In this document: positions 14,068-62,143 of the stretch, in pieces
How positions within the stretch are numbered: position 1 is the first letter of the stretch
How the letters are laid out: the number at the start of each line of letters is the position of its first letter
Assembly (NCBI GenBank): GCA_963751455.1
Contig: CAVVUN010000001.1
Span: forward strand, 224,001-288,000
From: Nitrospirota bacterium
GTDB lineage: Bacteria > Nitrospirota > UBA9217
Reading direction: 5' to 3'
Length of the DNA stretch: 64,000 nucleotides
Made by a program: the position numbers and the translations under genes
Notes under the pieces: generated by a model
Told to the model about the DNA's origin: nothing
Databases searched by the model: none
The model's input: only the letters and a program-made list of their open reading frames with translations

Positions 14068-14140
14068 GCATAGGGCAGAGCGCGTGGAGTATGGAGCTTG
14101 CGCATACGTCGATTTCATTTTTTTCGCTCTGCGCTTTGCG
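14068..14140. repeat. Palindromic array of 7-bp units (GCAWAGN family) between convergent polA and tamB
   Basis: GCATAGG GCAGAGC GCGTGGA GTATGGA … CTCTGCG CTTTGCG. Same family as 45975-46045. Confidence 0.6.
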
Positions 14141-14143
14141 GAC

Positions 14144-17100
14144 TTATTTGAACTCAAACCTGTACTTAATGTCCGCGCCGGTGTTTCCCAGTTCATTCCG
14201 CTCACCTACCAGCGAAAAGTGCCTGTCCAGGATGTATTCTATTCTAAAAACCTGCTCCGGCGTTGTGGACCCCACGTTCGAGGAATACGTGACATAGAGC
14301 TTGTCCTGTACGATCTCCTTGCCCACCGTAACCCGCGGCACGGACGTATCGTTTTTGCTTATATAAGGGTCCACCTGGAACCGGTCGAGTCCGGTCAAAC
14401 TGCGGGCACTGCTTTCAAAGATGTCCTGGAACTGCCCGGTTGCAAAGTAGGCTGCCTCGTTCATACCGACGCCGGCCTCATGCCCCATGAGTTCGGCGCT
14501 CTTCTTCCCCAAGGCGAGCAGCGCGAGGATGTCCGAGTCCGGCAGTGACGGATCGGAGACCAGCGTTACTACGGCACGGTCGGCGGTGCCGGAAACCGCC
14601 AACCCGATACGGTACTCACGCTCAACATCGCGGACCCGAATCTCAGCCTGAATATCGAGCACCGGGTTGATTCTGTTCGGGTCCACGAAATCCGCCGACG
14701 CATGAACGATCCTGAATTCGTTTTTCCTAAAGTACACGGAGCCTTTCGGCGCCGCGACCCTGCCCAGGAGCTGCGGCTGGTTCACGGTGCCCCTCAGGAA
14801 AACATCTACATCCAGAGGCATTTTCGCAAGATTATTCTGGAACAGTATTCCCTCTTTCCCGTGAAACCGGATGTTGATATGCATATCGCCGACCCGTCCG
14901 GCCTCGGCCTTTTTTTTCTGGTAGAGGCCCCTTCCGACATCGACGAGCATGCTCTTCCACTCCACCCGTTTATCATACCTGGCGCGCCTGATCATGAGAT
15001 CGCCGGTCAAAGACTGTTCCGAGAGGTCGCCGTCGTAATACAGGCTTCCGGAAAAGGTCGATGTAAGCCCTTCCGGGTAGCGTACCGTAACGTTTTCAAA
15101 AGCGGCCGTTGTGGAAAAATCTCTCAGAGCGAAACCGTCCAGCTGGGCCCATCCTGTCGCGTTTACCATGCCGCCCCCGAAATCTCCGTTAACAGAATCC
15201 ACGACAAGCCGGCTGCGGTCAAACGTAAGCCTTCCCTTCAAGCCCGATAATTTCTGAGGAATGTCTCTTATCTTGACCTCGCCGTTCCTTACAAGCAGCT
15301 CGCCAGTCACTTCGGGGTTTTTCCATTCATCTCTCACAGTAAGCTTGACTTCAGCTATTCCGTCTGCATGCTCTATTTCTCGAAACAGGAGCCTGAGGAT
15401 AGACATATTTACAGATCCCGTGAGCGAGAGGTCAGCATCTCTGAAAAATCCTGTTCCTCCTGCAACCCCGATCTTGGTACCCGGCCCATTCATATCGAGC
15501 GCATGTATCATGATTTTTCCTGCCTGCAGGGACGCGTTTATTTCCGCGGAATTTTCAATGCGATAATCCCCGATCAGGAAACTCAAACGACGAAAAGATG
15601 CCGTGCCTGAAAACGTCGATGATTCGGTGCCGCTGCCACGCAGGTTCATGTTTCCATCTGCCGTCACTTTGACACGGCCCAGAAGTTCTTTTCCCCCGGC
15701 AACAAGAAAAGGGTCTATGGTCTCTGCATTGACCTTCGCCTGCATGGTCCAGTTGTACGGTCTACTGAGCGCCATCCGTGCAGATAGACCTGCCCGACCC
15801 TCCCCCACTGCGGACTGAAAGGTAAGCACCCGATCGTTGATTTCCAGTCCGGCTGTAAGGCTTCCAATGCCCGTGTGGTTATAGAGAAGCTCGTCCATCT
15901 TGAGTGAAGCGGCTACGCGCGGCCGCGAGAAGGGTCCGTTCGATTCTATTTCGAAACCGCACTCTCCGTCGATCGGCAATCGCGGCAGATAATCTACTTC
16001 AGAAAGCTTTACCCCGCTGCCTTCTACGCGCGCCGCATACGATCCGTTGAATCCGATCCAGCCCGTTCCCCTCAACGTGCCGCTGCCCTTGACCACGTGG
16101 ACCTGGGGAAATTCGATCCTGTCCTTCGAAAGAGCGGCAGTAATGGTCGCGCGAGAAAAAGATTCGCCGTAAGCGCTTCCCGCTTCGAGTTCGAGATGAC
16201 CGTTTCCCGTAAAATCGGCCACCGTCCCGTCGAACGAAAGTTCGCCCCGGGCTGATAAGGTAAGCGGAATCGGCTTGTAAAAAAGGGCCACTACGCTGAC
16301 TACGTCCGAACGTACCACTTTGAGACGGGCGGAAAAAACCGTTTCTGGGCCGGAAATATCGGCAGATCCATCGAACACGTAATGAGAGTCCTGCTGATGG
16401 ATGTCGACGGACGCAAGTGTAAGCTTCCTGTCGCTGTATCGGACCGTACCCTCGGCCCTGTTAAACAATATTCCGCGTATCGCCGTCGGGCCTGCCCTCA
16501 ACTTCCCCTGGAAAGCCGGAGCGATAAAAGCGCCCGACACGGTACCGGAAACTTCGATCCTGCCATCCAGCGGAAGCGATGTAAGAAAGGAGAGCGTCCG
16601 GCCGCGGTCTCCCGATTCAGCTTGCAGCTGCACATCAAATCCCCGTTGCGGGTCGGCCCTGCCCGACAGAGCTGATCGCCAGATCGCCTGCCAGGATATG
16701 GAAATGCCGGATATCCAGTCCTTGTTCCCGGTAGCCGAATACTGCATCGAACGAGTCTATCATGACATCTTTGTTAGCCCTCGCCACCTTCCAGTTTCGG
16801 CCGATCAGCTTCAAATTGTTATCGCCGTAATTGAATGCTGCGCTGGCATCACGGAGCAGCAGACCTTCGTAGGAAATGCCTTCCAGGCGGACTGTTCCGT
16901 CAACCGCGGGACTGGTGATGTTTCCCCTAATCGTTGCCTCAGCCTCTATATGCGGATTATGTTCCTTTTTTTTGAAAGCTTTAAATACATCCGTAAATTT
17001 ACCGATTGTTTGCAGGCCTGACTGCATTCTGACTTTCAGGTTCAAAGCAACATCGGGCAGGCGGCCGAGATCGCCCGAAGCAGAAAGCGTGGTATCGGAC

Positions 17101-17786
17101 GAAGTGAGTTCTGACGACTCGACCCTGAACCTGCCGTGCTCGTAGCGGATTACCGCTTTCAGTCCTCCTGCCAATTCATTGTACGCCGGAGCAGTTGTGC
17201 GAATTTGACAATTTTTCACCGTGACTCTTGCGCTGTCGCTTCCCAGGCTGACCTTCGCACTGATCTGGATTCCGGACAGCGAGGCACTGGTGGCTGTTAG
17301 TTCGTCATTAAATGAAACCCTGCCCTGGTTCACTGCAATCGCGCCAAGGACTATCGTGAACCCCGAACTGCTGCGGGACGGCGTTCGGCCGATGTTTTGC
17401 CTAATCCGGTCCAGCATCTCGGTGTAGTTTAAAGTTCCGTCCTTTGCCCGCTTTATTGCAATCCGGGGCTCCAGAAACACGATTGATGGCATATTGATCT
17501 TTTTCAGGAGAAGCGAAACCGGGTTGATATAGACCTTTATTTTTCGGATCGCAGCCAGTTCTTCCCGTTTTCCGTCCGTAATAGAAATGTCCCTTGCCTC
17601 TATATAAATCGGAATGAAGTTGGCGCGGACAGAACCGATCTGGACGTCGTTCCCAAGCGCGGCTTTGAGCACGTCCGCCACGAGAGGTTTGAGCCTGCGC
17701 GCGAAACGGTCGCTCTGGGCGTAATATTCCGCCGCAATCAGCAGTACAAAGACCAGGATCGATATGGCAACGATAATTTTTTTCAC
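14144..17786 (-). CDS. tamB: Translocation/assembly module TamB (AsmA-like); apparent +1 frameshift near 16670
   Basis: N-terminal TM anchor, long beta-taco-type sequence, DUF490-like C-terminus (NPVLDIQAE…SDILALLALG…GADIKYRFEFK). ORFs 16635-17786 and 14144-16747 join by deleting one base. Confidence 0.82.
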
Positions 17787-17851
17787 AATGTTGGGATAAG
17801 ATTCCTTATATCAGGAAGACACAATGAAGAACCAATATGTTTTTTTTCAGA

Positions 17852-20461: not shown

Positions 20462-20527
20462 GGTTTGTTTAGTTTGTTTAGTTTGTTTGGTTTAAAACAA
20501 GACAAACCATATAAACCAAATAAACCA
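20462..20527. repeat. Palindromic array of 9-bp units (GTTTGTTTR / AAACCANAY family)
   Basis: GTTTGTTTA x2, GTTTGTTTGG TTTAAA … AAACCATAT AAACCAAAT AAACC. Same family as 34026-34104. Confidence 0.7.
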
Positions 20528-20960: not shown

Positions 20961-21136
20961 GTTCGAACTCCTTTCAGAATCGCGGGTTTAGGGCTTACAT
21001 ATGCTTCGTAAGATACCATATCGAAATATGGCTTTCAACAAAAAAGCTTGCCCCGAGGCATTCATGTGACTATACTGAGCAAGGGTAAATATCCAATCAC
21101 CATTACTCATTTTCCGATTAATATCAGGAGTTTGAA

Positions 21137-34010: not shown

Positions 34011-34025
34011 GCACCTCCTGTTTCA

Positions 34026-34104
34026 GTTTGTAAAGTTTCTTTGGTTTCTTTGTTCGTTCGGTTTAAACCAAACAACCAGATGAACCAGACAAACCAGATA
34101 AACC
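34026..34104. repeat. Palindromic array of 9-bp units (GTTTCTTTG / AACCAGAYR family)
   Basis: GTTTCTTTG x2 … centre GGTTTAAACC … AACCAGATG AACCAGACA AACCAGATA AACC. Confidence 0.7.
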
Positions 34105-39861: not shown

Positions 39862-39943
39862 GGTTTTGTACCTTTATTTACCGCCACCACCGCTTTAACC
39901 GCATATCTTGTTTTCTTCGCGTCTTCGTGGCAGAATTTTATTA

Positions 39944-40552: not shown

Positions 40553-40645
40553 ATTTCAAATTGCAAAATGCAATTGTAAATTGCATACTGAAATCAGAAG
40601 CCAAATATTTTGAATTTTGCAATTTTCAATTTACAATTTCCAATT
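40553..40645. repeat. Palindromic array of 7-bp units (TGCAAAW / WTTTGCA family) between rnfE and rnfA
   Basis: TTCAAAT TGCAAAA TGCAAT TGTAAAT TGCA … TTTTGAA TTTTGCA ATTTTCA ATTTACA ATTTCCA. Confidence 0.7.
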
Positions 40646-40660
40646 ACGCGTTTCTCAGCG

Positions 40661-42905: not shown

Positions 42906-42920
42906 CTCTTTAACTCCTCC

Positions 42921-43038
42921 AAATTCCAAAACTCAAACAAATAATATCCAAATTCAAATTATCAATTTCAAAAAATTTGCTATTTGGTGCTTGCTGCGTC
43001 TACTTTATTTGTTATTTGATGCTTGGGATTTGGTGCTT
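42921..43038. repeat. Palindromic array (CAAAT-rich / ATTTGGTGCTT family) between rnfC and rnfD
   Basis: A/C-rich left arm, T/G-rich right arm. Shares CAAATAATATCCAAATTC with 45471-45602. Confidence 0.7.
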
Positions 43039-43047
43039 GTCCTCAAT

Positions 43048-44640: not shown

Positions 44641-44688
44641 TATCGGACTGGAGTTCGGAAAGGAATTTTGATATTCCACAATGGCGGT

Positions 44689-44913: not shown

Positions 44914-45086
44914 CCGGATAATCTCCTTGTAGTGAATTTATTTACCACAGTATACATCTTTTTATGCCTCTTTAACAGTTTTTTCTATGACGTCGCAGTT
45001 CATCATATTTGGTTGACTTGGTGTTCCCCTTCTGATACCTTTTCCGTTGTCAATGCGACCATCAGCTGTCTTTTAAAGGTATTATT

Positions 45087-45461: not shown

Positions 45462-45470
45462 GAGAGGAAC

Positions 45471-45602
45471 AAATTTCAAATAGCAAATCACAAAATGCCA
45501 AATAATATCCAAATTCGAAACTCCAATGTTCAAAAAGTTAGGATTTGGTGGATTTTGCTCTTTGGAGCTTATTTGATATTTAGTGCTTTAAATTTGGGAT
45601 TT
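45471..45602. repeat. Palindromic array (same family as 42921-43038) between crcB and the DUF190 gene
   Basis: AAATTTCAAATAGCAAATCACAAAATGCCAAATAATATCCAAATTC … ATTTGATATTTAGTGCTTTAAATTTGGGATTT. Confidence 0.7.
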
Positions 45603-45632
45603 TCTCTCTCGGTATTTACTTAAGGAGAGATC

Positions 45633-46007
45633 ATGGTAAAGAGCGGCCCGGCCAAGAAGCTTACAATATATCTCGGTGAGGCGGACAAAATCCACGGGAA
45701 ACCCGTGTACGAGGTATTGCTGGACATATTTTATAAAAGGAAGATAGCCGGCGCAAGCGTGTTCCGTGGTATCGAGGGATACGGAAGCGACGGCGTGTTC
45801 CATACCGCAAAAATTCTCGAACTATCAACGTCTTTGCCGGTAAAAATCGAGGTTGTGGATTCGGAAGAGAAGATTAACGGGATTTTGGATGAAGTGACCT
45901 CTATTGTGGAAAAGGGGGTCATCGAGGTGAGCGATACGAACGTGATTAAATGCTGCGTGAGAGAGGCGGCAAAGGATAAGGCGCATAGCGCAAAGAGCAA
46001 AGAGTAA
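45633..46007 (+). CDS. DUF190 (PII-like) protein
   Basis: LTIYLGEADK…AGASVFRGIEGYG…ILELSTSLPVKIEVVD. Typical crcB neighbour. Confidence 0.88.
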   Translation: MVKSGPAKKLTIYLGEADKIHGKPVYEVLLDIFYKRKIAGASVFRGIEGYGSDGVFHTAKILELSTSLPVKIEVVDSEEKINGILDEVTSIVEKGVIEVSDTNVIKCCVREAAKDKAHSAKSKE

Positions 46008-46045
46008 TACGCCCCTACGCTATGCTCCATGCCCTCTGCGCTGTA
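45975..46045. repeat. Palindromic 7-bp array (GCAWAGN family) overlapping the DUF190 3' end
   Basis: GCATAGC GCAAAGA GCAAAGA G … CTACGCT ATGCTCC ATGCCCT CTGCGCT. Confidence 0.65.
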
Positions 46046-47463: not shown

Positions 47464-47587
47464 GAGGATATGAACAGCAGGTAATCAGAATGCGGACGAG
47501 CAAACCGAATTACATATCCCCTCATCTTTGTCCCCTCTCGCAGGAGAGGTTTGAGGTGAGGGTTGATTCACGTTTACCGGCCTGTCG

Positions 47588-48439
47588 CTACTTTTTCTTT
47601 ATTTCAGCTTCAATGACGTGCTCAACATCCTGGAGGCTGCGGAGTTGAACCAGTTTTCCGTTTACGAACAGGGTCGGTGTTCCGGGGACTTCGGCCTGGG
47701 CGCCCTCGTTCATGTCCCTGGCAATGATCTTTTGTATCTCCGGGTCGTTCAGGTCGCGCTTGAACTTTTCCATGTTCAGCTTGAGTTCCTTGGCGATGGC
47801 CTCAATCTTTGTCTCATCCAGGCTGCTCGAGGATTCGAACAGCTTATGGCTGAATTCCCAGAATTTGTCCTGGCGAAACGCCGCAAGGGCGGCTGCGGCT
47901 GCTTTTTTCGCGAACGAGTGCATCGGAAGAGGATAATTCTTCATGACCAGCTTTACATCTTTGGGATATTTTTCCAGCAACTGCTGGAGAACCGGCTCGA
48001 GCCGGCCGCAGTATGGTCATTGGTAATCGCTGAAGACCGCGATGGTAACCGGCGCATTGCGGGGACCTTTGAACGGCAATCCCTCGAACGAAAACTGCTG
48101 AACGAGTTCGAGCTGTATCATTTTCAGCGTCTTTTCGGTGCTGCTCGATACGATTACTGTATTGTTCGAAGGCGAAAAAGCGACCCTGTCGAATATTTTT
48201 TCCACCGGGATGCGGTTTAACACCGTTTCATTTGCAACGGAAAAAACCAGAAGTTGACCGCGGGTAAGAATATACATCAATTTTCCGTCCGGGGCCGCGG
48301 CAATGTCCAGGGCGGATGCTTCCAGATTGAGCTGTTTCTTGAGGCTCCATTCAACCGACGCCTCGGCGCCGGCCAGCCGCGGAAGAAACGCCGTCGGCGA
48401 CAAAGCAACTACGAGCAATAGCAGTAAGAACCTTTTCAA
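47588..48439 (-). CDS. Exported DsbA-like thioredoxin-fold selenoprotein (UPYC), 283 aa with TGA read-through
   Basis: ORFs 48017-48439 and 47588-47980 are in frame: …VFSDYQ-TGA-PYCGRLEP…NYPLPMH…GTPTLFVNGK. The TGA aligns with the first Cys of CxxC. A hairpin follows. Confidence 0.85.
47981..48016 (-). promoter_or_regulatory. Putative bacterial SECIS element
   Basis: After UGA: CCAUACUGC-GGCCGGC-UCGA-GCCGGUU-CUCCAGCAG. Apical loop starts 16 nt after UGA. Confidence 0.6.
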
Positions 48440-48629
48440 GTGATACTCCTTTCAAATGGTGAAAGTTGATATAATGAATGGGAAAAATGGAAAAAAGATT
48501 TGCGATTGATAATTATTTTATAACAGACAGCCCATTTATGCAATCGTTATTTCAAATACGACAGCTTATGGCAAATCAATTGTCGTAAAGATACCGGCAG
48601 GCCGCGTCCGTATCGCCTGAACAAAGATG

Positions 48630-48662
48630 AAAAAAAGCCATAACGTATTACGCGTTATGGCT
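48630..48662 (-). terminator. Terminator after tRNA-Pro
   Basis: AAAAAAAGCCATAACG-TATTACG-CGTTATGGCT. Confidence 0.8.
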
Positions 48663-48668
48663 GTAAAA

Positions 48669-48745
48669 TGGTCGGGGCGAGCCGATTTGAACGGCCGACC
48701 ACTCGCACCCCAAGCGAGTACGCTACCAGGCTGCGCCACGCCCCG
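48669..48745 (-). tRNA. tRNA-Pro(GGG)
   Basis: CGGGGCGTGGCGCAGCCTGGTAGCGTACTCGCTTGGGGTGCGAGTGGTCGGCCGTTCAAATCGGCTCGCCCCGACCA. Anticodon GGG. Classic ihfA-merR-tRNA-Pro context. Confidence 0.96.
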
Positions 48746-48764
48746 AAACCGTTAAGAACTGACT

Positions 48765-49047
48765 ATTTCAAATTTCAAATTGCAAATATCAAATTGCATA
48801 ATTTTGAAAATATTGTAACTATTCAGCTTCTTTTCAGAACAGCATTAAGACAAATCTAAGAAAAAGCCCTTCTATCCGCAGATTTCGCAGATTGACGCAG
48901 ATTCTAAAACCGGAATTCTGGTTTTGTTTTTATCTGCGAAATCTGCGTAATCTGCAGATAAAAAAATGACCTGAGTAGTTACAAAATATTAAACCATACT
49001 ATCACTCAAATTTGCAATTTTCATTTTGCACTATGCAATATGCAATA
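48765..49047. repeat. Palindromic 7-bp array (TGCAAAW family) interrupted by a MITE
   Basis: Left TTTCAAA TTTCAAA TTGCAAA TATCAAA TTGCA; right TTTGCAA TTTTCAT TTTGCAC TATGCAA TATGCAA. Confidence 0.72.
48815..48982. mobile_element. 168-bp MITE with 12-bp TIRs and 8-bp target-site duplication
   Basis: TIRs GTAACTATTCAG / CTGAGTAGTTAC (1 mismatch). AAAATATT is directly repeated at 48807-48814 and 48983-48990. Contains a 9-bp CGCAGAT palindromic array (48873-48959). Confidence 0.85.
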
Positions 49048-49052
49048 AATCT

Positions 49053-49382
49053 TTATTTCAATATCTCCAATATCTCCCTGAGTTCCTTTTTGACCGTTTC
49101 CAGGACAGCGTCCATGTCCTGATCCGCCCTGCCGTTCAGTTTCTTTCTGGCCCCCGTAATAGTATATCCTTCTTTATATAATAGCTGCTTGATCTGAAGA
49201 ATATGATCGAGGTCCTTTTTCTTGTACAATCGCTGGCCGGAACTCCCCTTGTCCGGCTTGAGCTGGGGAAATTCGGTTTCCCAATAGCGGAGCACGTACG
49301 GTTCCAGCCCCGTAAGGCGGCTGACCTCGCCAATGCGGTAGAAAAGCCTACTCTGCTGTGGGGATTGTTGTTTCGATGACAT
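49053..49382 (-). CDS. MerR-family transcriptional regulator
   Basis: [30 protein letters not shown]…QRLY…GYTITGAR. Confidence 0.92.
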
Positions 49383-49644
49383 GCTCTTTGAAAATCATGC
49401 TGGGCCTGAAACTGACAACCTTCCTCGGGGTGATTTCTATTTCCTGGCCGGTCTTCGGGTTGCGGCCCTTTCTCGAGTTCTTCTTCCGGACGACAAAATT
49501 CCCGAAACCCGAAAGTTTCACTGTTTCACCCTGTCTCAGAGTGTCTTTGATTAAATCCAGAATCATCTCCACGAGTTCCTCAGCATCCTGCTTGGGCAGG
49601 CCGACCTTATCGAAAACTTCGGAGATGATATCTGCCTTGGTCAT
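49348..49644 (-). CDS. ihfA: Integration host factor subunit alpha
   Basis: MTKADI…VKLSGFGNF…[34 protein letters not shown]. Confidence 0.92.
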
Positions 49645-49759
49645 AGATACCTCCTGTAGAATTGGATAACTATAGAGCATAGGCGTTTCAAAGTCAAGGC
49701 AAAATTTGTTCTATATTGCTGAAATCACGAAAGATTATTAATATGTACAAAAGCACTTT

Positions 49760-50005
49760 TATCGGAAGATCATCCAGACGTAAACAGATTTTATAGGTAG
49801 TTAAAAGCGTTATCCCCATATTTCGCAGATATACGCTGATTTTAAAGAAAGAATAAATTCAAGGCGGGTTTTTTATCAGCGAATCTGAGATGATATAGAG
49901 ACTGGCACTGCGTTCAAATATTGTCGTGTAAAGTACTCACACAGTTTTTTAAAAAAGAACAAATTAGCCTCGTTTTTATCTGCGAAATCTGCGTAATCTG
50001 CGGTT
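49760..50005. repeat. Degenerate, apparently doubled 9-bp palindromic array (CGCAGAT / ATCTGCG family)
   Basis: TTTCGCAGATATACGCTGATTTT … ATCAGCGAATCTG … ATCTGCGAAATCTGCGTAATCTGCGG. The right arm nearly matches that inside the MITE at 48930-48958. Confidence 0.65.
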
Positions 50006-50121
50006 ATATATCAACTCTTGGTTCTTCACTACAGTTTGACATCATCCTGGTTTGCCGTTAATATAACCAAAGTAATAAGATAAGGCAAGATTGCCAAGGG
50101 TATGCGCTTTGATTATTCCTC

Positions 50122-51573
50122 ATGACCTATAAACTGATTAAAATTTCCGTTCTCCTTGTGTGGCTGGTCCTGTTCGGAATTCTGATCGAGCGCACCTATC
50201 TGCGTCCTTCGTCGGTCATCGCTCTCGATGTGATAGCCGAGGAAGGGATCCGGGCATCCGACGAGTGGTCCGGCATTTACCAGCACGGCAGTAAGATAGG
50301 ATATGCGCACAGTGTTGTAAAACGCGAGGCGGATGCCTATCATCTTATCCATGAATCCGAACTCGACGTGCTGCTCCTGGGATCAATCCAGCGCGTCAGG
50401 ACAAAGATCGACAGCTACACCACACTCAATTTCCTGCTCAAGTACTTCAATTTCACGCTGGAGTCCCCAAACAGCTCGATGGAAATCAAGGGCGCAGTGC
50501 TCGGGAAGAAACTGATGCTGGACATCCTTACTGCGGGACAAACGCGAAAGGAGCAGATCATCCTGACCGAGCCGCCCTACCTTTCTCCCAACATCAAACC
50601 CGCTCTCGTGCTGATGGGGCTGGAGCCCGGAAGGAAATACCGTTTCCCGCTTTTCAATCCTGCCACATTGAACACTGAGGACGCGTCCATATCCGTCGAA
50701 GCGAAGGAAAAGATCAAGGTTGGAGACGCTGAACAAAGCGTGTATAAATTAAAGGAAACGTACCAGGGAATGGAGGCCTTTTCCTGGATCACTGAAGAAG
50801 GCGAAACAATAAAGGAAGAAAGCCCGCTCGGCTACGTGCTGTTAAAGGAAACCATGTCCGAGGCGCTGAAGCGTGACAAGCAGGGCCCGATCGTAGACAT
50901 CATATCCCTGGTAATGATCCCGTCGGACCATATAGAAGACCCGAGCAAAACAAAGTATCTCAAAGCCAGGCTGACAGGAGCGCAGCTCAACGGATTCGGT
51001 CTTGACGGCGGCAGGCAGGCGTTCAAGAATAACGCCGTTGAAGTAAGCGTCCGGGCCGCGAATACCGCGTACAGCCTGCCCTACTCCGGGAAAGATATGG
51101 GCGAAGCCCTTCGGCCTGCCCCGCTGGTCCAGAGCGATGACCGGCAAATACAGGACCAGGCGCGGAAAATCGTGGGCAAAGAACGGGACGCTGCGAAAGC
51201 CGCGCGACTGCTGAACGAATGGGTGTACTCCGCGATCCGGAAAAAGCCGGTCGTCAGCATCCCAAGCGCCGTCGAAGTCCTGAACCAGCGCATCGGGGAC
51301 TGCAACGAGCACACGACGCTCTACACAGCGCTCGCCCGCGCTTCAGGAATACCCGCGCGCATGGCTGCAGGCATCGTATACCTGCGCGACGGCTTTTACT
51401 ACCATGCCTGGCCGGAAATATGGGACGGCCAGTGGACCGCCGTGGACCCGACTTTTAACCAGTTCCCCGCTGATGCCACGCACATCCGGTTCGTCACCGG
51501 CGACCTGGCACGGCAAGCGGATATCCTGAAGCTGGTCGGGAAACTGAAGGTGGAGGTTTTGGAGTATAAATGA
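50122..51573 (+). CDS. Membrane-anchored transglutaminase-like protein
   Basis: N-terminal TM. Catalytic triad motifs GDCNEH…ARASGIPAR…YHAWPE…WTAVDPT. Confidence 0.88.
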   Translation: MTYKLIKISVLLVWLVLFGILIERTYLRPSSVIALDVIAEEGIRASDEWSGIYQHGSKIGYAHSVVKREADAYHLIHESELDVLLLGSIQRVRTKIDSYTTLNFLLKYFNFTLESPNSSMEIKGAVLGKKLMLDILTAGQTRKEQIILTEPPYLSPNIKPALVLMGLEPGRKYRFPLFNPATLNTEDASISVEAKEKIKVGDAEQSVYKLKETYQGMEAFSWITEEGETIKEESPLGYVLLKETMSEALKRDKQGPIVDIISLVMIPSDHIEDPSKTKYLKARLTGAQLNGFGLDGGRQAFKNNAVEVSVRAANTAYSLPYSGKDMGEALRPAPLVQSDDRQIQDQARKIVGKERDAAKAARLLNEWVYSAIRKKPVVSIPSAVEVLNQRIGDCNEHTTLYTALARASGIPARMAAGIVYLRDGFYYHAWPEIWDGQWTAVDPTFNQFPADATHIRFVTGDLARQADILKLVGKLKVEVLEYK

Positions 51574-51582
51574 GATGGGAAA

Positions 51583-51732
51583 TCTCAGATGTACTTTGAT
51601 CTTATCCGCAGATAAACAAATATAACGTCCGTGTAAAAGCAGTCTAGCCGCAGATTACGCAGATGGACGCAGATTTTAAACCATAAATTAACGTTCGGCT
51701 TAATCTGTGGAATCTGTGAAATCTGCGGATAA
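51583..51732. repeat. 9-bp palindromic array (CGCAGAT / ATCTGYG family)
   Basis: CCGCAGATTACGCAGATGGACGCAGATT … AATCTGTGGAATCTGTGAAATCTGCGG. Confidence 0.75.
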
Positions 51733-51767
51733 AAAATAGCTGATATAATTTATTTATATACTAAAAT

Positions 51768-52496
51768 ATGATCAAACTCATCAACCTCACCAAGCGTTAC
51801 GGCAATCTCACGGCCGTGAACAACATCAACCTCGAAATCGGGCAGGGAGAAGTGTTTGGTTTCCTCGGGCCGAACGGCGCAGGCAAGACTACCACCATAA
51901 AAATGATGGCGGGCCTGCTGCAGCCCACCTCCGGGAATGCGCTGATCGGCGGCTATGATATTCAGAAGGATCCTCTTCGAGCGAAATTCATCACCGGGTT
52001 CATACCCGACCGGCCTTTTCTGTATGAGAAGCTGACCGCAATGGAATTTATGCAGTTCGTTTCGAAGCTGTATGACATGAACAGAGCCGAGAACCGCATC
52101 GCGGAACTGCTCGAGTTGTTCAGTTTATCGGAATGGGCAGATGAGCTGGTGGAAAATTTTTCTCACGGCATGAAGCAGCGTCTCGTGATGGCCTCGGCCC
52201 TGCTGCACCGTCCCCGGGTGCTCGTGGTGGACGAGCCCATGGTCGGTCTGGACCCGCGCGGCGCCCGGCTGGTAAAGGACATCTTCAAGGAAATTTCGTC
52301 TGCGGGAGTGACTGTTTTCATGTCCACCCATACGCTCGAAATCGTGGAGCAGATGTGTACGCGGGTGGCGATCATCAACAAGGGCGAAATTATTGCGGAA
52401 GGAAGCGTCGCGGACCTCGGCCGCATGGCGCGCATGCCTGACAGCCGTCTTGAGCCAATATTCCTGAAGCTGACCGGCGGAGATGAAGGGATATGA
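51768..52496 (+). CDS. ABC transporter ATP-binding protein (ABC-2 type)
   Basis: GPNGAGKTT, FSHGMKQR, VVDEP, STH. Confidence 0.93.
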   Translation: MIKLINLTKRYGNLTAVNNINLEIGQGEVFGFLGPNGAGKTTTIKMMAGLLQPTSGNALIGGYDIQKDPLRAKFITGFIPDRPFLYEKLTAMEFMQFVSKLYDMNRAENRIAELLELFSLSEWADELVENFSHGMKQRLVMASALLHRPRVLVVDEPMVGLDPRGARLVKDIFKEISSAGVTVFMSTHTLEIVEQMCTRVAIINKGEIIAEGSVADLGRMARMPDSRLEPIFLKLTGGDEGI

Positions 52497-52554
52497 ACAG
52501 AAATCACGAATTTAAAATAACAAGTTCGGTTCCAAAGTTGATGCAGTCAAAATC

Positions 52555-52798
52555 CACCGCCGAGACACGGAGACACAGAGATAAAAACGAGTCTCTTACG
52601 GTTCTCACAAGCTTTCCCATAACCCGCTGCATCCCGTGAACAGCGTTCGCGCTTTACATGACCGGAATGCGAGCCGGTAAACCACAAATCGTGCATGCGC
52701 GTGCGTAGCGCAGCGAAGCTCAGCGCTATGGATAGCTAAGTCGATTGGAAGAACATAAGATAATCTGGCATGTTTGCGCGGCGCTGTGAACGGCGGTG
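52555..52798. repeat. Degenerate 8-bp inverted array (CACCGCCG AGACACGG AGACACAG … CTGTG AA CGGCGGTG) enclosing about 200 bp non-coding cargo
   Basis: Terminal CACCGCCG and CGGCGGTG are reverse complements. The cargo ends show weak inverted similarity. Confidence 0.45.
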
Positions 52799-52871
52799 CA
52801 GAAAAAAAACAAGGATCTTGTACTTCCCTGAAGTGTTTGTCCGTTGTTCATTGGAGATGATCAAATAAAAG

Positions 52872-54560
52872 ATGTTTTTACTTCTCACTCCCCGATATCA
52901 CGCGATAAAAAACAAACTGCTCAGGCTCGCGCCGGGCGACGGTCTCAAGACGTTCGTGCTCGCCTGCCTCGGTCTCGCCTTCTGGGCCTTCCTGTTTATC
53001 ATTTCCTATCGGGTGCTTTCCTATTTCAGGACCATCGAAGGACTGGGAGACCTGCTCGCGCTCCGTCTGCTGTCCATGGTCCTCCTCACGTTCTTCTCGA
53101 TCCTGGTGTTCAGCAATATTGTAACGTCCCTTTCAACGTTCTATCTCTCGGGGGAGCTCCAGATCCTGCTATCAGCGCCGGTAAGGACGGAGAGGCTCTT
53201 CCGCGCCAAGTTCATCGAGACAATCGCGGATTCGTCCTGGATGACACTCATCTACGGTCTGCCGGTCTTCATCGCCTACGGCGCGGTATTCAAGGCCCCG
53301 CTTGCCTATTACGGGGGGCTCATCTTTACGATCATTCCGTTCCTGGCGATTCCGGCCGGCATCGGCATCATCTTCACCATGCTGCTGGTGAACGCCTTCC
53401 CCGCGCGAAGGGCAAAGGACTTGATCGTGCTCCTCGGCCTGCTGTTCTTCGTATCCCTGTATATTTTATTCCGGATGCTCCGCCCCGAAAAGCTTGTGGA
53501 CCCGGACGCGTTTCCCACGCTCGTCCAGTACCTTACAGCAATGCGCGGACCGGTATCGCCGCTTCTTCCCAACTACTGGGCTGCGGAAACCCTCTCCCCG
53601 CTTCTTCGGAACACGCTGGGCGAAGCCCCCTTCTACCTCCTGATGCTCTGGAGCACGGCAGCCGCGCTCTTCGTTATCAGCGAATGGGTGTGCGGGAAAA
53701 TCTATTACCCGGGTTGGTCCCGCTCGCAGGAGGGGAAAAAGGCCGCCATATCGCGCTCGCGCGCGGCGGACCTGTTCTTTTCGATGGTCGCACGTCCGTT
53801 TCGCGGCAAGATGCGTGCGATCGTGACGAAAGACGTGAAGCTCTTCTTTCGCGACACCTCGCAGTGGTCGCAGCTTTTTCTTCTGTTCGCGCTCATGGTC
53901 GTTTATATTTACAGCTTCAAGCTTCTTCCCCTGGAACGGGCGGCCATGCCCAGCTTCTTTCTGCAGAACCTGATCTCCTTCCTGAATCTCGGCATGGTGG
54001 GGTTCGTGACTTCGGCCCTGGCTGTGCGCTTCGTATTCCCTGCCGTGAGCCTGGAAGGCTCCTCCTTCTGGATTGTCCGTTCAGCACCCCTGACGATCAG
54101 GGATTTTCTATGGTCCAAGTTCTGGAGCAGCCTGCTGCCGCTCGTTATTCTTTCAGAAATCCTGCTGGTGCTTTCGAATACCCTGCTCAAAGTTACTCCC
54201 TTCATGATGGGAATCGGCATTGTTACCGTATTTCTCATGACTTTCGGCATAACGGCCCTCGGCATCGGACTGGGCGCAGCGTTTCCTAAGTTCAAGCATG
54301 AAAACGTCGCGCAGATTCCGTCCGGCTTCGGCGGAATAGTGTATATGCTGATGACAATGCTGTATATCGGCCTCGTGGTCTTGCTCGAAGCCTGGCCCGT
54401 GTACCGCATTTTTTCGGCCCAGACCTTCTCGGCACAGATATCAATCGCCGGGTGGATAATGATAACTTTTTCGTTTATTCTGGTTCTGATAATCAACATC
54501 CTCGCCGTGTTTTTACCGATGAAAATCGGCCTGAAACGGCTTATTCAGAGGGAAATTTAA
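52872..54560 (+). CDS. Putative ABC-2 exporter permease (multi-TM)
   Basis: Many TM helices, LLSAPV…LFRAKF, KDVKLFFRD, SLEGSSFWIVRSAP. Follows the ABC ATPase. Confidence 0.85.
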   Translation: MFLLLTPRYHAIKNKLLRLAPGDGLKTFVLACLGLAFWAFLFIISYRVLSYFRTIEGLGDLLALRLLSMVLLTFFSILVFSNIVTSLSTFYLSGELQILLSAPVRTERLFRAKFIETIADSSWMTLIYGLPVFIAYGAVFKAPLAYYGGLIFTIIPFLAIPAGIGIIFTMLLVNAFPARRAKDLIVLLGLLFFVSLYILFRMLRPEKLVDPDAFPTLVQYLTAMRGPVSPLLPNYWAAETLSPLLRNTLGEAPFYLLMLWSTAAALFVISEWVCGKIYYPGWSRSQEGKKAAISRSRAADLFFSMVARPFRGKMRAIVTKDVKLFFRDTSQWSQLFLLFALMVVYIYSFKLLPLERAAMPSFFLQNLISFLNLGMVGFVTSALAVRFVFPAVSLEGSSFWIVRSAPLTIRDFLWSKFWSSLLPLVILSEILLVLSNTLLKVTPFMMGIGIVTVFLMTFGITALGIGLGAAFPKFKHENVAQIPSGFGGIVYMLMTMLYIGLVVLLEAWPVYRIFSAQTFSAQISIAGWIMITFSFILVLIINILAVFLPMKIGLKRLIQREI

Positions 54561-54711
54561 GAAATGTTTAAACCACTATATATTGTATGTGTGGATAAAA
54601 ATAATACCTTACCTTGTAATTTTTGCCTTTACAATACCCCCTTCTTATGATATAAACGATCCCAGAATTCCGGGGATAACAAGACGGAAAATCGGCCCCA
54701 ATTAACTGTAC

Positions 54712-54795
54712 GGGACGACGGACGTCCGCTCACCTCGGTTCGCTAGGACGTTGGACGCTAAAGACTTTTCATCCTTCGTCCTTCGTCCCTCATCT
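54712..54795. repeat. 7-bp palindromic array (GGACGAT / CGTCCYT family) upstream of smc
   Basis: GGGACGACGGACG…GGACGTTGGACG … CATCCTTCGTCCTTCGTCCCTCATC. Same family at 59846-59930 and 61166-61250. Confidence 0.7.
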
Positions 54796-54861
54796 CCGGC
54801 TTTTTACGCGCCTTCTCACGCCCATCGCTTCATACGCGATCCGCATATTATAAGGAGACCT

Positions 54862-57800
54862 ATGCAGCTCAAAACCCTCGAAATGACCGGCTTCAAGTCC
54901 TTCTCTGACAAGACGATCGTCGCATTTCAACCCGGGATAACCGCAGTGGTAGGACCGAACGGATGCGGCAAGAGCAATATCTCGGACGCCATCCGCTGGG
55001 TGTTGGGCGAGCAGAGCGCAAAGCATCTGCGCGGCGAGAAGATGGAAGACGTGATTTTCAACGGGAGTGAAAACCGCAAGCCGCTCGGTCTGGCCGAGGT
55101 GGTTCTGAAGCTCTCGAACGCGGCCGGCGGCCTGCCGTCCGATTTCGGTCAATACAGCGAGATCGAAATCACCCGCCGCCTGTATCGCTCGGGCGAAAGC
55201 GAATATTTCATCAACAAGATCCCCTGCCGTCTGAAGGATATCCGCGACCTCATGATGGACGCGGGCGTAGGCGGCAAACTGCACGCGATCATCGAGCAGT
55301 CCAGGGTCGACCAGATTCTTTCTTCAAAGCCGCAGGACCGCCGTTTTCTCTTCGAGGAAGTTGCGGGCGTCATGAAATACAAGGCGCGCCGCCAGGAAGC
55401 GCTTTCCAAACTCGAGGCGACCCAGCAGAACCAGCTGCGGATAAACGACATCATCATCGAGGTAAAACGGCAGGTCAACTCCCTGGACCGGCAGGCAAAA
55501 AAAGCGGAGCGCTATCAGAAGCTGCGGGCCGAAATGAAGGATTCGGAGTTCCGGCTGGCCTCGGTTGAATATTCCAACCTGGGCATCGAATGGACCTCTT
55601 CGTCCGAAGAGTTCAGGAAGCTCGAAGACGAAGTTACCGGGCTCCACGCGGCGCTTGGCAGGATCGAGTCGGGGATCGAGGAAACCAGGGCGGCGGCCTT
55701 GTCTTCGGAGCGCGAGCTCGCGACGCTCCAGAACAAAATCCACGAAACCGAATCAGCGCTCAGCCGGGCCGAACACCGGGTGGAGATGTCCAAAAGCCAG
55801 ATCACATCCCTGACCGAACAGAGCGGCCGCGACAGCGCCGACATAGAATATCTCAAACAGGAAATGGTCCGAACGACGGATCAGAAAAAGCAGCACGAGG
55901 AGGAAGCGCGGTCTCTCGGCGAATCGATCGAGGAGAGAAACAGGGTACTCGTTCAAAAGGTGGAGGATATCGAGTCCGTTGCCCGTGCGCTCCAGGAAAA
56001 GGAACTGTCTCTTGAAGAGACCAGGAACGGGATCCTGAGCGCCATGAATCAATCGGCTGCTGAAAAGACCAGGGTATCGAACCTCAGGGCCAGGGTCTCT
56101 CAGATCGATGAGCAGGATGAGCGCGCATTGAAGGAAAAACTGGAACTGGAGCGGAAACTCGGGGAGCTTAAGGTCCTGCTCGCCGATAAAGAGCGCGAGC
56201 TTGAAGACATCGCGCGCCGCCGCGTCTCTGCCGAGGATGAACGGACACAGGTCTCGGCCAGGCTGGAACAGGCGACAGCAAACAGAAAAGGGCTCGAAAC
56301 AGGGCTCAATGAAAGCAGGAACAGACTTGCGGCACAGAGTTCGCGGCTCCGCTCCCTTCTCGAACTGGAACAGAGCCTCGAAGGTTATCAGAAAGGCGTG
56401 CGTACCGTGATGTCGGCCCGCAAGGAAGGCGCAGCCGAACAAAACCTCGGCACGATTCACGGAATCGTTGCCGATATGATCGAGACCGAACCCAGATACG
56501 AGGTGGCGATAGAGGCAGTGCTCGGAGACCGGCTCCAGTACGTTGTGGTCGATTCGCAGCACGATTCTCTCAAGGCCATCGATTATTTGAAGACTAGGAG
56601 CGGCGGTCGGAGCACCTTTGTTCCGAAAACGCCGCGGGAGGTCCGGTCAGAGCCGTTCATAAAGAACGGCCATGCAGGCGTGATCGGTCCGGCGCTCGGC
56701 GTTGTCAGATGCAAGGAGAACTACAGCACCGTCGCCCAATACCTGCTCGGCGACGTGGTGGTTGTCGATACCATGGACACCGCCCTTTATTTATGGAACA
56801 AGAACGGTTTTAACAAAACGGTTGTAACTCTTTCCGGCGAAATCGTGGATCCGTGGGGTGCGGTCACAGGGCGGAGCCGCAGACGCGGGCGGAGCCGGCA
56901 TGCTGACGAAACGCCGGGAGATCAAGGACCTTGAGCATGAAGTGTCCGTGATCACCGCTCAGGCGGCGAAGCTCGAAAGCGAACTTCGGACGGTCGAAAC
57001 GGCGATTGCTTCGGACACCAAAACCGAGGCGGAGCTGTCGCAGATAGTGCACCGCCTGGAGATCGAACACGTCAACGGGGAAAAAGATTGCACCGCGGTC
57101 AGCGAGGAGATCGGCCGCTCGACAGAGCGTTGCACCGTGTTGGAAGCCGAAGCCCGGGAACGGGAAACCATGCGGCATGCGCTGAACGCCGATATCCAAA
57201 AATCGGAGGTGGTTTTGAGGGACCTGGAGACGGGCCATTCGAATGCGCAGGCAAGCGCGGAAGCCCTTCAGGCTGAGCTTTCCCGTACGAAACAAACGCT
57301 TGAATCAGCGCGCGCCGAGATCATGGAACTCCGCATGCAGCTCGCAGGCCTGCAGGAAAAACAGGCCGCGTCAGCCAGGAGCATCGACGCTTTACTCAGG
57401 ACAGAGGCGGACCTCATGGACCGTATCGGGAAGCGCGAGGCGGGAATCGCCGGCGTTGCCTCGCGCCTCGCGGAGCTGCATGCGTCCATACAGGAAGCTG
57501 AAACCGAGATCAAAGGCCACATCACGACGCTTGAAGCAGACCGCACGGTCCTTGTTGCGCTGCAGGAAGCCCATTCCGTAAAAGCAGCTTCGCTCCAGGC
57601 GGCCGACGAACAGGCACGGCAGACGCGGCACGATATCGATGCCGGCCAGAAGCAGCTCTCCGCAAACGAAGTGAAGCGCACCGAGCTCAGGATGAAGATC
57701 GAGCATTTGAAGGACCGGATCTGGAGCGCATATCACAGCGACCTGGAAACCGTTGTTCAGGAGCTGGGAGTATTCGAGCTCAACCTCGAGGAATCGCGCC

Positions 57801-58444
57801 TCCGGCTGGACGAACTGCGCCAGAAGATCGACCAGCTCGGCCCGATCAACGTCGATGCGCTCCAGGAATACAACGAGCTGAGAGAGCGGTACGACCTGTT
57901 GAGCGCCCAGCAGAACGACATCAACGAATCCATCAACAACCTTAAAGCCACGATCGCAAAGCTTGACGGTGAAACCAAAGAGCTTTTCAGCGACGCCTTC
58001 AAGGCGATACAGGAAAAGTTCACCGAGGTCTTCTCTCTCCTGTTCGAGGGCGGCAGAGCCGAGCTTGTTCTGCTGGACGAGTCGAATATGCTGGAATCGG
58101 GGATCGAGATCATCGCGCAGCCGCGCGGCAAGAAGTTTCAGGCAATCTCGCTCCTGTCCGGCGGCGAAAGGGCGCTCACTGCCATCGCCCTGCTCTTCGC
58201 GGCATTCCTGGTCAAGCCGAGTCCGTTCTGCATGCTCGACGAGGTCGATGCGCCCCTCGATGAAGCCAATGTGACCCGCTTTACACGTCTTCTCCGGGAG
58301 ATGAGCAGCCGGTCGCAATTCATTACGATTACCCATAATAAACGGACAATGGAGATGGCCGACGCGCTCTATGGCATCACCATGGAAGAGCCCGGATGCT
58401 CCCGTGTGGTATCCGTCCAGCTGCGCGAAGCGGCCCTGGTATAA
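54862..58444 (+). CDS. smc: Chromosome segregation protein SMC (apparent +1 frameshift at GGG 56869-56871)
   Basis: GFKSF, GPNGCGKSN, hinge, LLSGGE signature, LDEVDAPLD. Deleting one G restores VTGGAADAGG and joins the two ORFs. Confidence 0.93.
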
Positions 58445-58460: not shown

Positions 58461-58736
58461 GTTTTAACCACGGATTAACACGGGTTCGGCTTCGCCGAAC
58501 AACACGGATAAAGCAGGAAGCTTTTCCGTTTTAAAACCGAGAAAAAAGATTTTAACCTGTGTTTATCTGTGCCTTGCCCGAGGGACAACGCGTGGTCATA
58601 GCATATTTTGTAATGTAACTACAGATGAATACTGATAAATTCTAGTCTCTAATTATCGATTTTTATTAAAACCGTGTCTATCCGCCTGCGGCCAGCGCTT
58701 ATCGTGCGAAGCGCGAATGCAGGCTGTGGTTAAAAT
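58461..58736. repeat. Composite 9-bp palindromic arrays (AACACGGAT family) with small palindromic insertions
   Basis: TTTTAACCACGGATTAACACGG … CCGTGTCTATCC[GCCTGC…GCAGGC]TGTGGTTAAAA. Insert GTTCGGCTTCGCCGAAC in the left arm. Confidence 0.6.
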
Positions 58737-59800: not shown

Positions 59801-59845
59801 AATTGTTGTATGCGGGGGAATTTATACAACCGCTTTAAACTACTT

Positions 59846-59930
59846 GATGGATGATGGACGATCGCTTACAGGGTCGCTAGGATGATGGACGATTTTGCGT
59901 CCCTCGTCCCTGGTCTTTTCGTCCCTCACC
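59846..59930. repeat. 7-bp palindromic array (GGACGAT family) between convergent genes
   Basis: GATGGATGATGGACGA…GGATGATGGACGA … CGTCCCTCGTCCCT…CGTCCCTC. Confidence 0.7.
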
Positions 59931-59942
59931 TCTCTTGCCGGT

Positions 59943-61100: not shown

Positions 61101-61165
61101 AACAAAGGGTGCTTCTCTCCAGAGTAACGACAAGGGGAAAAGGCGGATGGTCTGGTTGAACTGCT

Positions 61166-61250
61166 CGATGGACGATAGACGACCGTTCGCTTCGCTCACT
61201 CGGACGATGGACGAAATGTCCCCTTCACTTCCCTACGTCCCTCGTCCGTT
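61166..61250. repeat. 7-bp palindromic array (GGACGAT family)
   Basis: CGATGGACGATAGACGA[CCGTTCGCTTCGCTCACT]CGGACGATGGACGA … CGTCCCTCGTCC. Confidence 0.7.
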
Positions 61251-61258
61251 TACCCGCC

Positions 61259-61801
61259 TTACCGTGCCGGCGTAATCAGATCCTGCAGGGCCTTGACGGT
61301 TGCGGGCTGGGTCCAGTCCCTAGCCCCGATTACTTTATATTTCACCATCCCGTTACGGTCGATAATATAGGTCTCGGGAAATTTAAAAGTGCCGTAAAGC
61401 TTTGAAATGGACTTCCGCGGGTCGAGCAGCACGGGAAGAGTCAGCCCGTTTTTCGCCATGAATCCGGTTACGACATCGGCCCCCCCCTCATCCACGTTTA
61501 CGGTCAACAGCTGAAAATCCGGACCGGAAAGCGCCTTGTAAAGCTTTTCCAGCAAGGGCATCTCTTCGACACAGGGAGGGCACCACGTCGCCCAGAAATG
61601 TACCATAACGACCTTGCCCCGGTAATCAGAGAGGCTCACCTGACCGCCGTTTGCTCCGGCGAGACTGAATGAGGGCGCCTGGTCTCCTTCCTGTATGATT
61701 TTAGCGGTCTTTGGGCCGCCTTTTGCAAGTATAATCAGAACAAATATCACGACGCCGGCAATGATAACCGCCGCCATAATGCCTTTCTTAACCGGGCTCA
61801 T
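61259..61801 (-). CDS. TlpA/ResA-family thiol-disulfide oxidoreductase
   Basis: TM anchor, FWATWCPPCVEEMP, FPETYIIDR. GGAGG RBS before ATG 61801. Confidence 0.92.
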   Translation of the reverse strand: MSPVKKGIMAAVIIAGVVIFVLIILAKGGPKTAKIIQEGDQAPSFSLAGANGGQVSLSDYRGKVVMVHFWATWCPPCVEEMPLLEKLYKALSGPDFQLLTVNVDEGGADVVTGFMAKNGLTLPVLLDPRKSISKLYGTFKFPETYIIDRNGMVKYKVIGARDWTQPATVKALQDLITPAR

Positions 61802-62143
61802 CGTCGCCCCTCCCGCTTTTTGGTTCATAACTTTCACCCTGAACGAGACTGGATTTTGGACTGCGCATGTTCTGCTCGGCGAACGGAACGGATTATACTC
61901 TGTTCTCCTGCCGAGGGCAAGCTGATTTCATAAGGCTGCAGCAGCAGAACCGCAAAGGAGGAACATACTGCTTTTTAGTTTTTAGTTTATAGTGACTTCT
62001 GCGCATTTGCGGCAAAAAACCTTTGCGGTTCGCGACTTTTGCCTGCGCCAGCCTGCACCCGGAGTTCACAGTGCGCTTTGCGCGTGTACAGGATACCTTT
62101 TTTGTTTGAAAATACAAGGCACTCTGATATAATGATCATTGCC

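Follow-up and report, generated by a model that had tools for sequence, protein, structure and literature searches.

Heptamer repeats of bacterial genomes include the STRR heptamers of cyanobacteria. Intervening sequences (IVS) of 23S rRNA that bear an open reading frame (ORF) are described from Coxiella and Leptospira; the ORF encodes a four-helix-bundle protein (S23p, PF05635) and lies between inverted repeats (PMC4990558). In the Coxiella IVS the heptamers GACAGAT and GACAGAA precede the start codon, the number of units varies and deletions of the ORF occur (Warrier 2016, PMC4990558). 23S_rRNA_IVP genes are reported inside cas loci as well (PMC3936711). The heptamer repeats GGGAATC and GGGGA(C/T)T of Xanthomonas and Nostoc lie less than 50 bp from stop codons, often as inverted pairs, and were read as G-quadruplex formers (Rehm 2015, PMC4692102). 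Ssn is a small single-domain GIY-YIG nuclease with shown cutting of single-stranded DNA and with NTS/SRM hairpins (Chenal 2025, PMC11893778). REPINs are inverted doublets that form hairpins and are tied to a cognate tyrosine transposase, RAYT (Bertels and Rainey 2011, PMC3116915). Here we describe short intergenic arrays in 64,000 nucleotides of DNA of a Nitrospirota bacterium (lineage UBA9217; assembly GCA_963751455.1, contig CAVVUN010000001.1, positions 224,001 to 288,000 of the forward strand), called below the window. Each array comprises several short tandem units, a spacer and the reverse-complement units. Very probably these arrays are empty copies of small cassettes in which a single short gene lies between a left arm of tandem units and an inverted right arm.

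Filled copies and the cassette proteins

The window holds gene-less copies only, with no cassette ORF at any of its array sites. The initial annotation suggested that similar arms flank four-helix-bundle (TIGR02436) and GxxExxY (TIGR04256) genes elsewhere, and filled copies of both kinds were indeed found in this genome and in its relatives. In this genome (G000 in locus names, with contigs C1, C2 and so on; compared loci carry L-numbers) TIGR02436 and TIGR04256 match 8 loci each, all outside the window, and the flanks of these loci bear the same kind of arms. Five GxxExxY and two typical four-helix-bundle cassettes are intact, and three are longer divergent forms. The other cassettes are broken by an insertion sequence (IS), by the MITE (miniature inverted-repeat transposable element) described below or by an internal deletion that left both arms in place (C3:251831, C15:928332, C15:1414666 and C15:1698088). 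Two paralogous hemH-hemG-like junctions (C12:21596 and C2:30548; gene names assigned by eye) each carry a GxxExxY cassette with a different arm word, one of the two cassettes being broken.

The comparison set held one genome per species and none from this genus. TIGR02436 is present in 44 of 61 genomes of the same family (E 1e-15) and TIGR04256 in 30 of 41 (E 1e-33). A control search showed Bacteroides thetaiotaomicron to be a carrier as well. The relatives sampled covered 90 of about 177 four-helix-bundle matches and 89 regions for about 118 GxxExxY matches, in part taken best-scoring first. The initial annotation had proposed to check whether copies enclose small ORFs and whether family matches ORF type. 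Both hold, the second by period: among cassettes with a period call, the arms have period 7 in 69 of 90 four-helix-bundle cassettes (8 in 14 and 9 in 4) and period 8-10 in 81 of 90 GxxExxY cassettes (7 in 3). Compared with mismatched pairs, a cassette's own opposite arm scores above their 95th percentile in 78 of 91 four-helix-bundle cassettes and in 58 of 95 with GxxExxY; this statistic replaced a first one that was uninformative, 41% and 59% of mismatched pairs having passed it. Across all species genomes (many phyla, two archaea) 80 four-helix-bundle loci were taken, 77 of which were measurable; arms match in 60 and the period is 7 in 62 of these 77. Every word of the window except CAAATAATATCC has a filled counterpart. 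The usual layout is arm, gene, arm, and the gene lies inside one arm in L058, L068, L206 and L228.

A genome scan for ORFs between arms gave 359 arm pairs, against 55 in shuffled sequence, and 81 candidate ORFs that were judged by eye. Beyond GxxExxY these were ordinary genes between neighbouring arrays or chance, and further types of cargo were rejected. One filled four-helix-bundle cassette (L060, G061:C33, ~1470-1845 in cassette orientation) lies inside a restriction-modification methyltransferase gene. The methyltransferase frame is open for 1043 codons straight through the cassette, the cassette ORF being in another frame, and an uninterrupted ortholog is found at G000 C12:353476-353709.

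The four-helix-bundle protein of the filled relatives matches PF05635 (E 1.5e-38) and XCC0516 (PDB 2gsc, E 1.4e-22); it also matches bAvd, below the cut-off. The GxxExxY protein matches PF13366 (PDDEXK_3, E 3.8e-42), and a D..E-x-K pattern occurs in 86 of 97 such proteins. Its model (predicted local distance difference test, pLDDT, 96) has best matches with restriction-endonuclease-like folds (Z up to 7.8, root-mean-square deviation 3.2, 95 aligned). A search for solved structures related by sequence found none (best E 0.9). GxxExxY is thus a predicted PD-(D/E)XK-fold protein. It is under purifying selection as judged from the ratio of nonsynonymous to synonymous substitution (dN/dS 0.015-0.17 in the 13 unsaturated of 128 pairs). 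When the arm word is mapped on a tree built from 97 GxxExxY proteins, 29 changes suffice, against 65.3 after shuffling, and words ending in AT are separated from those ending in AG by a deep split. Where GxxExxY junctions are inherited, a change of word affects every unit in the two arms at once (CGCAAAG/CGCAGAG, CACAGAG/CACGGAG). At one junction three protein clades are accompanied by three words.

Array sites in the window and in the genome

About 15 array sites had been listed in the initial annotation; every one is present in the sequence, a few bases off at most, and some required correction. The units at 48765 and 48873 both exist but form a single nested locus, namely a TGCAAA array with a MITE in its loop. 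The units at 49760 are scattered and degenerate and give no clean hairpin (fold z 0.4 for 49860-50010), and at 52555 there is a left arm but no right arm (fold z -0.1). The proposed number of at least six unrelated families is too high: CGCAGAT, CACGGAT, CACGGAG, CACGAAG/CGCGAAG and CGCAAAG are variants of one word; the 8-10-bp words form one superfamily with the shared pattern C-R-C-R-R-A-K. The features are collected in Table 1.

Table 1. Array features of the window (positions of the 64-kb window; strand "." in every row).
Feature	Position	Strand	Location and remarks	Genes flanked by the word in filled copies
Empty 7-bp GCRYAG array	14065..14140	.	Convergent polA/tamB gap, directly after polA stop	Four-helix-bundle gene in L229
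Empty 9-bp GGTTTGTTT/AAACC array	20462..20526	.	Upstream of glnD	As direct repeats: four-helix-bundle genes at G000 C9:376678 and L206
Empty 9-bp GGTTTG/AAACC array	34025..34103	.	3' of CHASE2-cyclase gene; fold z -3.7	
Eroded 8/9-bp CACGAAG/CGCGAAG array	39880..39933	.	rnfA-rnfB	GxxExxY genes
Empty 7-bp TGCAAA array	40553..40645	.	rnfE-rnfA	Four-helix-bundle genes in L222, L228
Empty 7-bp CAAATAATATCC array	42920..43040	.	rnfC-rnfD	
Empty CAAATAATATCC array	45471..45606	.	crcB-DUF190	
Empty GCRYAG array	45980..46045	.	Overlaps DUF190 3' end, convergent with pcm; fold z -3.9	
Empty TGCAAA array, MITE-split	48764..49049	.	Between merR-like gene and tRNA	
168-bp IS66-type MITE with empty CGCAGAT array (48872-48962)	48815..48982	.	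Ends GTAACTAYTCAG	
Degenerate CGCAGAT units	49760..50005	.	Divergent ihfA gap; not one clean hairpin	
Empty CGCAGAT array	51583..51733 (main hairpin 51645-51733)	.	Before ABC ATPase gene; fold z -4.9	GxxExxY at G000 C15:1252989, L144, L146
Left arm only, CACGGAG/CACAGAG word	52555..52582	.		
Empty 7-bp GGACG array	54712..54796	.	Between conserved promoter-like motif and smc ribosome-binding site	Four-helix-bundle genes in L177, L185, L187, L188, L197
Empty CACGGAT array	58464..58570	.	After smc; CTTCG hairpin within left arm; degenerate units on to ~58735	GxxExxY at G000 C12:21596 and C15:928332
Empty GGACG array	59845..59925	.	Convergent gap	
Empty GGACG array	61163..61250	.	Between thioredoxin-like and penicillin-binding-protein genes	
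Eroded CGCAAAG array around TTTTTAG 7-bp run	61947..62031	.		CGCAAAG: GxxExxY at G000 C2:422946; TTTTTAG: four-helix-bundle gene in L210

The window contains 22 tandem arrays of period 7, 8 or 9, against 1-7 in five local shuffles. A strict scan of the 5.72-Mb genome, requiring a tandem 5-mer pair and then its reverse-complement pair at most 150 bp away, gave 84 sites of period 7, 25 of period 8, 130 of period 9 and 14 of period 10 (after one shuffling of the genome: 2, 1, 4 and 1); the yield at periods 5, 6, 11, 12 and 13 was 3-7 sites each (0-3 shuffled). Only 9 of the 253 hits fall within called genes, and at most 2 of these resemble real arms. When gaps of 30-1500 bp between our own gene calls were scanned, 496 of 4105 bore arrays at a score of at least 4, with 13 expected from shuffles; this is an undercount, because only 10 of 17 window sites pass the cut.

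The arms fold into long hairpins with periodic bulges. Apart from the two corrected sites above, fold z-scores in the window range from -0.1 to -4.9, and the MITE-borne copy reaches -10.9. That the arrays follow stop codons, fold as hairpins and contain three short matches to the terminator pattern of a short GC stem and a U run (scan of 38000-56000) is what ordinary intrinsic terminators would give. The same scan found clear matches at 38651-38630 and 48662-48636, with none on the sense strand at the three rnf arrays. Moreover, the enrichment is limited to periods 7-10, which speaks against low-complexity drift too, and the same arms bracket two specific gene families, so the filled copies contradict a terminator origin. 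Terminators or drift are therefore an extremely improbable explanation. The initial annotation had named in advance the observations that would count against mobile cassettes; what was found is that ORF-filled copies and presence/absence polymorphism exist and that the terminator reading is contradicted.

Its other proposal, RNA hairpins processed out of operon transcripts, is not supported by the mismatches of the arms. On the mRNA strand the ratios of G-U to A-C are 104:103, 68:82, 92:86 and 172:147, i.e. without G-U excess, although misregistered tandem units may blur the signal. Terminator-like stems found without G-U bias (n=97) give 28:13 (p 0.028). The lack of G-U excess leans towards strand-symmetric DNA sites or towards mutational upkeep.

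Some arrays hitch-hike on a MITE. The element at 48815-48982 is flanked by the 8-bp target duplication AAAATATT (48807-48814 and 48983-48990) and has 50 long blastn matches in the genome. Its terminal inverted repeats start with GTAA, which together with the 8-bp duplication we take to be the hallmarks of IS66. The genome has 58 GTAAC end pairs; a CGCAGAT array lies within 47 of them, and the 8-bp duplication is exact at 35. No intact transposase element whose ends are identical to those of the MITE was found in the genome. A 2064-bp element at G000 C9:161390 has GTAAC ends, an 8-bp duplication and a PF03050 transposase, its ends matching those of the MITE only partly; L424 has the left end of the MITE and broken frames that look IS66-like by eye. 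Carriage by the MITE accounts for some CGCAGAT copies but does not account for the bare arrays. In a relative, a filled GxxExxY cassette lies within a 526-bp element (L143:908-1433, G007:C113) that shares the GTAACTATTCAG ends and has an exact 8-bp duplication, and GTAACTATTCAG ends adjoin CGCAAAG arrays in other relatives. A repeat of about 215 bp (L435, G000:C1:326500-327500), present at about 11 places with 95-99% identity, carries a CGCGAAG array and is probably another MITE.

The genes of the window are housekeeping ones: polA, glnD, lpdA, gcvH, rnfCDGEAB, crcB, pcm, surE, ihfA and smc. The Rfam scan of the window returned two tRNAs only, and the array sites lie between protein genes. Both tRNA genes are on the minus strand (11151-11222 and 48672-48745), and the end of the TGCAAA array is 19 nt upstream of the latter. 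Frameshifts break up smc, aroE and a gene for a radical SAM protein (54862-58444 and 5149-7292) and may be assembly errors, a possibility that bears also on the broken cassette genes of this genome. The lpdA/gcvH gap (37739-37964) holds a nested element with 42-nt inverted ends around a palindrome TGTAGGGC...GCCCTACA that resembles repetitive extragenic palindromes. Small hairpins of the CGCTTCGCT and GGCTTCGCC type occur in the left arms of GGACG and CACGGAT arrays (54720-54745, 58482-58500, 59862-59880 and 61185-61200), and they are present in filled relatives too.

Junction alleles and modes of spread

Filled, empty and absent states, which the initial annotation had wished to see compared at orthologous junctions, are all found at larC-nadE. 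The 30 loci compared there were ranked by how closely they resemble a filled one, and their genes were named by eye: 15 are filled, 4 are deletion intermediates that keep the same arms but have lost most or all of the ORF, and 8 have an empty array of another word; the remaining loci are a bare gap of 23 bp, one with another gene and one unclear. The filled L374 and L375, which is empty with another word, have NadE 94% identical. At selB, mutS, nuoE-nuoF and further junctions a relative is filled where this genome is empty, the word being nearly always different. Bare, half and eroded alleles coexist at the same junctions. The earlier description of the arrays as empty or non-autonomous forms of small mobile cassettes thus stands as to the empty forms and, in the sense of turnover between relatives, as to mobility.

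At the rnfE-rnfA junction 50 of 52 loci are readable (in L342 and L343 the junction could not be delimited). There are 26 TKCGGA, 7 GAGTY, 5 CGAAAT and 3 TGYAAAT arrays, 3 single words, 5 unclassified arrays and 1 bare gap, and none is filled. On the rnfE+rnfA tree the family needs 16 changes for 45 labelled rows, against 18.1 after shuffling (as low in 7 of 200 shuffles), and from the starred branches the three minority families must have arisen at least 4, 4 and 3 times. Replacement is bounded by the stop codon and the Shine-Dalgarno site: L362 and L366 (rnfE 97% identical), like L350 and L361 (92%), differ exactly between these two points. The rnfC-rnfD and crcB-DUF190 arrays show the same turnover behaviour. 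The window array at rnfE-rnfA scores 69 against arrays of its own genome and 51 against the best orthologous array, these being low-complexity scores. The rnf genes are themselves mosaic between genomes of the same or different genus, with 99% identity in rnfG-E-A and 82-84% in rnfC-D (L035/L351, L352/L357 and L036/L363), which points to recombination or to binning errors. Given the low-complexity scores and this mosaicism, horizontal exchange of junction alleles and fresh insertion look alike here.

In 77 of 79 and in 85 of 87 assignable cases the cassette gene shares its strand with the host gene upstream of it. Bare 7-bp arrays are present in 132 of the 3013 same-strand gaps, in 12 of the 529 convergent ones and in 4 of the 563 divergent ones (p 7.5e-6), and bare 8-10-bp arrays in 206, 30 and 19 gaps, respectively. 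MITE-borne arrays, though younger, have no such bias (49, 11 and 8; for 8/563, p 0.86). The first detected 7-bp unit is at a median of 14 nt 3' of the stop codon. Local hopping was rejected, for bare neighbours less than 5 kb apart share the family in 23 of 96 cases, against 21.7 after shuffling. The smc array lies 3' of a promoter-like block (~54575-54655), which is conserved in nearly all of 29 relatives, and 5' of the ribosome-binding site; most of these relatives lack the array and a few carry other words there.

Such placement could also be expected of domesticated RNA elements, i.e. hairpins of operon mRNA that are cut by RNase III or bound by the cassette protein and set the output of the downstream gene. 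If any family served, the arrays would be kept and yet be interchangeable. The strand bias of the bare arrays, their distance from the stop codon, the site upstream of smc and the array-like sequence at rnfE-rnfA in 49 of 50 genomes agree with this. In addition, RNase III cleaves the Coxiella IVS at its first heptamer (PMC4990558), and the Xanthomonas heptamer repeats are mostly transcribed (PMC4692102). However, the arms lack the G-U excess seen in terminators, the same junctions have bare, half and eroded alleles, and one family is replaced wholesale by another. Domestication as RNA appears unlikely on balance.

It is also possible, with a similarly low probability, that the arrays are passive repeats, whose palindromes are renewed by slippage and template switching and which travel by homologous recombination and on IS-derived MITEs, the genes being passengers blind to the arms. 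The number of units varies freely between close pairs, and the rnf mosaicism, the carriage by MITE ends (which in L143 hold a filled GxxExxY cassette) and the lack of a target duplication at bare arrays fit such a picture. It leaves unexplained that the period follows the type of ORF across phyla, that arm words agree with the protein tree even though the junctions differ and that the ORF is under purifying selection. Besides, stop codons are the starting point of bare arrays but not of MITE-borne ones.

We return to the cassettes, which are likely propagated as selfish DNA of a kind hardly described so far. In host transcripts they would directly follow a stop codon, and from those transcripts they would be expressed. 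Deletion between the arms would remove the gene and leave an empty array, and the empties would go on being exchanged between relatives at the same junction. The arms are likely the DNA recognition sites of the cassette's own protein. The predicted GxxExxY nuclease likely cuts at the arms, and the cut would start recombinational copying and drive conversion between junction alleles. The four-helix-bundle protein is presumably non-catalytic, hence its cassettes would need host recombination or an enzyme supplied in trans. The scheme as a whole, with selfish cassettes, arms recognised by protein and copying between junction alleles driven by a nuclease, we hold to be only a little more probable than an even chance.

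Several points weigh against this reading. Two gaps of the window that are filled in a relative, 32633/32686 (L054) and ~20961-21136 (L089), have no array here. Conversely, no filled copy was found at the array-bearing window junctions among 18 long syntenic, 52 rnf and 30 smc-leader loci. Because none of the rnf and smc loci is filled, we infer the filled ancestor of the window sites from shared words only, and for the CAAATAATATCC family a filled copy was found neither in this genome nor in the relatives examined. The family labels at rnfE-rnfA were set by eye. Target-site duplications at bare arrays show no clear excess (2/56 against 3.7 and 13/103 against 7.9). About 68 of the 496 arrays adjoin MITE ends and require no other mover, and the rnf mosaicism means that plain homologous recombination could move junction alleles without a cassette enzyme. 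Several junctions are inherited as clades, so that kinship inflates the tree signal, and changes of the arm word within a constant protein clade mean that word and protein are not strictly paired. A fold Z below 8 is weak by itself and may reflect only a common arrangement. The roles of both cassette proteins are predictions from sequence and model.

Comparison with known systems

If the cassettes act as outlined, PF05635 and PF13366, both very large uncharacterised families, each gain a candidate substrate that can be read from the adjacent DNA, which makes their function directly testable. At least one gap in eight of this genome bears an array, core respiratory operons included. One class of element would tie together heptamer repeats, ORF-bearing rRNA intervening sequences and small genes in conserved operons, such as the cas loci of PMC3936711. 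Should GxxExxY proteins cut by word, they would offer a set of very small nucleases whose specificity varies naturally. A broader proposal, which we put forward tentatively and consider somewhat less probable than not, is an unnamed and widespread selfish class with two small proteins, unrelated to each other, that would each recognise a code of tandem words in the inverted arms of their own cassettes. GxxExxY proteins would then be 120-residue site-specific nucleases, one specificity per word, homing into gaps behind the stop codons of conserved operons. The unexplained heptamer repeats of bacteria and the ORF-bearing 23S rRNA intervening sequences would both derive from the four-helix-bundle (Avd-like) cassettes.

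Our literature search, with supplements and most subscription papers outside its reach, found no description of the gene-plus-arms class. GxxExxY received a passing mention in the available texts. No link of repeats to these genes is made in the accessible parts of MacGregor's paper on TAACTGA repeats (PMC4679880) or of PMC8700078, and that of PMC4692102 gives no gene family for the Xanthomonas heptamer repeats and mentions neither "S23" nor "helix bundle".

The 23S rRNA IVS resembles our elements in the four-helix-bundle ORF of the filled relatives and in terminal inverted repeats with tandem heptamers (PMC4990558). Relatives, moreover, have GACAGA arrays at rnfC-rnfD, and in L069 such arrays surround the ORF. 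The IVS is described in that source as a single RNase III-excised rRNA insert, whereas the window arrays are gene-less and lie between protein genes; there are hundreds of copies in mRNA gaps here, mostly gene-less and with many words, and GxxExxY is a second cargo. In our reading the Coxiella IVS would be a single known filled member of the class. The Xanthomonas-type repeats share period 7, the preference for same-strand gaps, rarity in divergent gaps, closeness to stop codons and inverted pairs. Unlike them, most window words have no G tracts.

With Ssn/NTS (PMC11893778) the arrays share a repeat on both sides of a small nuclease-type gene, many gene-less copies, and repeat variants paired with protein variants. 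GxxExxY, however, belongs to PF13366 with a restriction-endonuclease-like fold instead of GIY-YIG, its nuclease role is predicted, and two arms of tandem units surround the gene where NTS is one short hairpin. The arrays are like REPINs in being hairpin-forming inverted repeats and non-autonomous. They differ from REPIN/RAYT in that the genes between the arms are PF05635 or PF13366 (no RAYT search was made elsewhere in the genome). The IS66-family MITE is a carrier of some arrays and not the array itself. By the defining features of those systems the class is no member of IVS, REPIN or Ssn, but it appears to work like them, and by analogy Ssn/NTS and REPIN/RAYT seem the closest working models.

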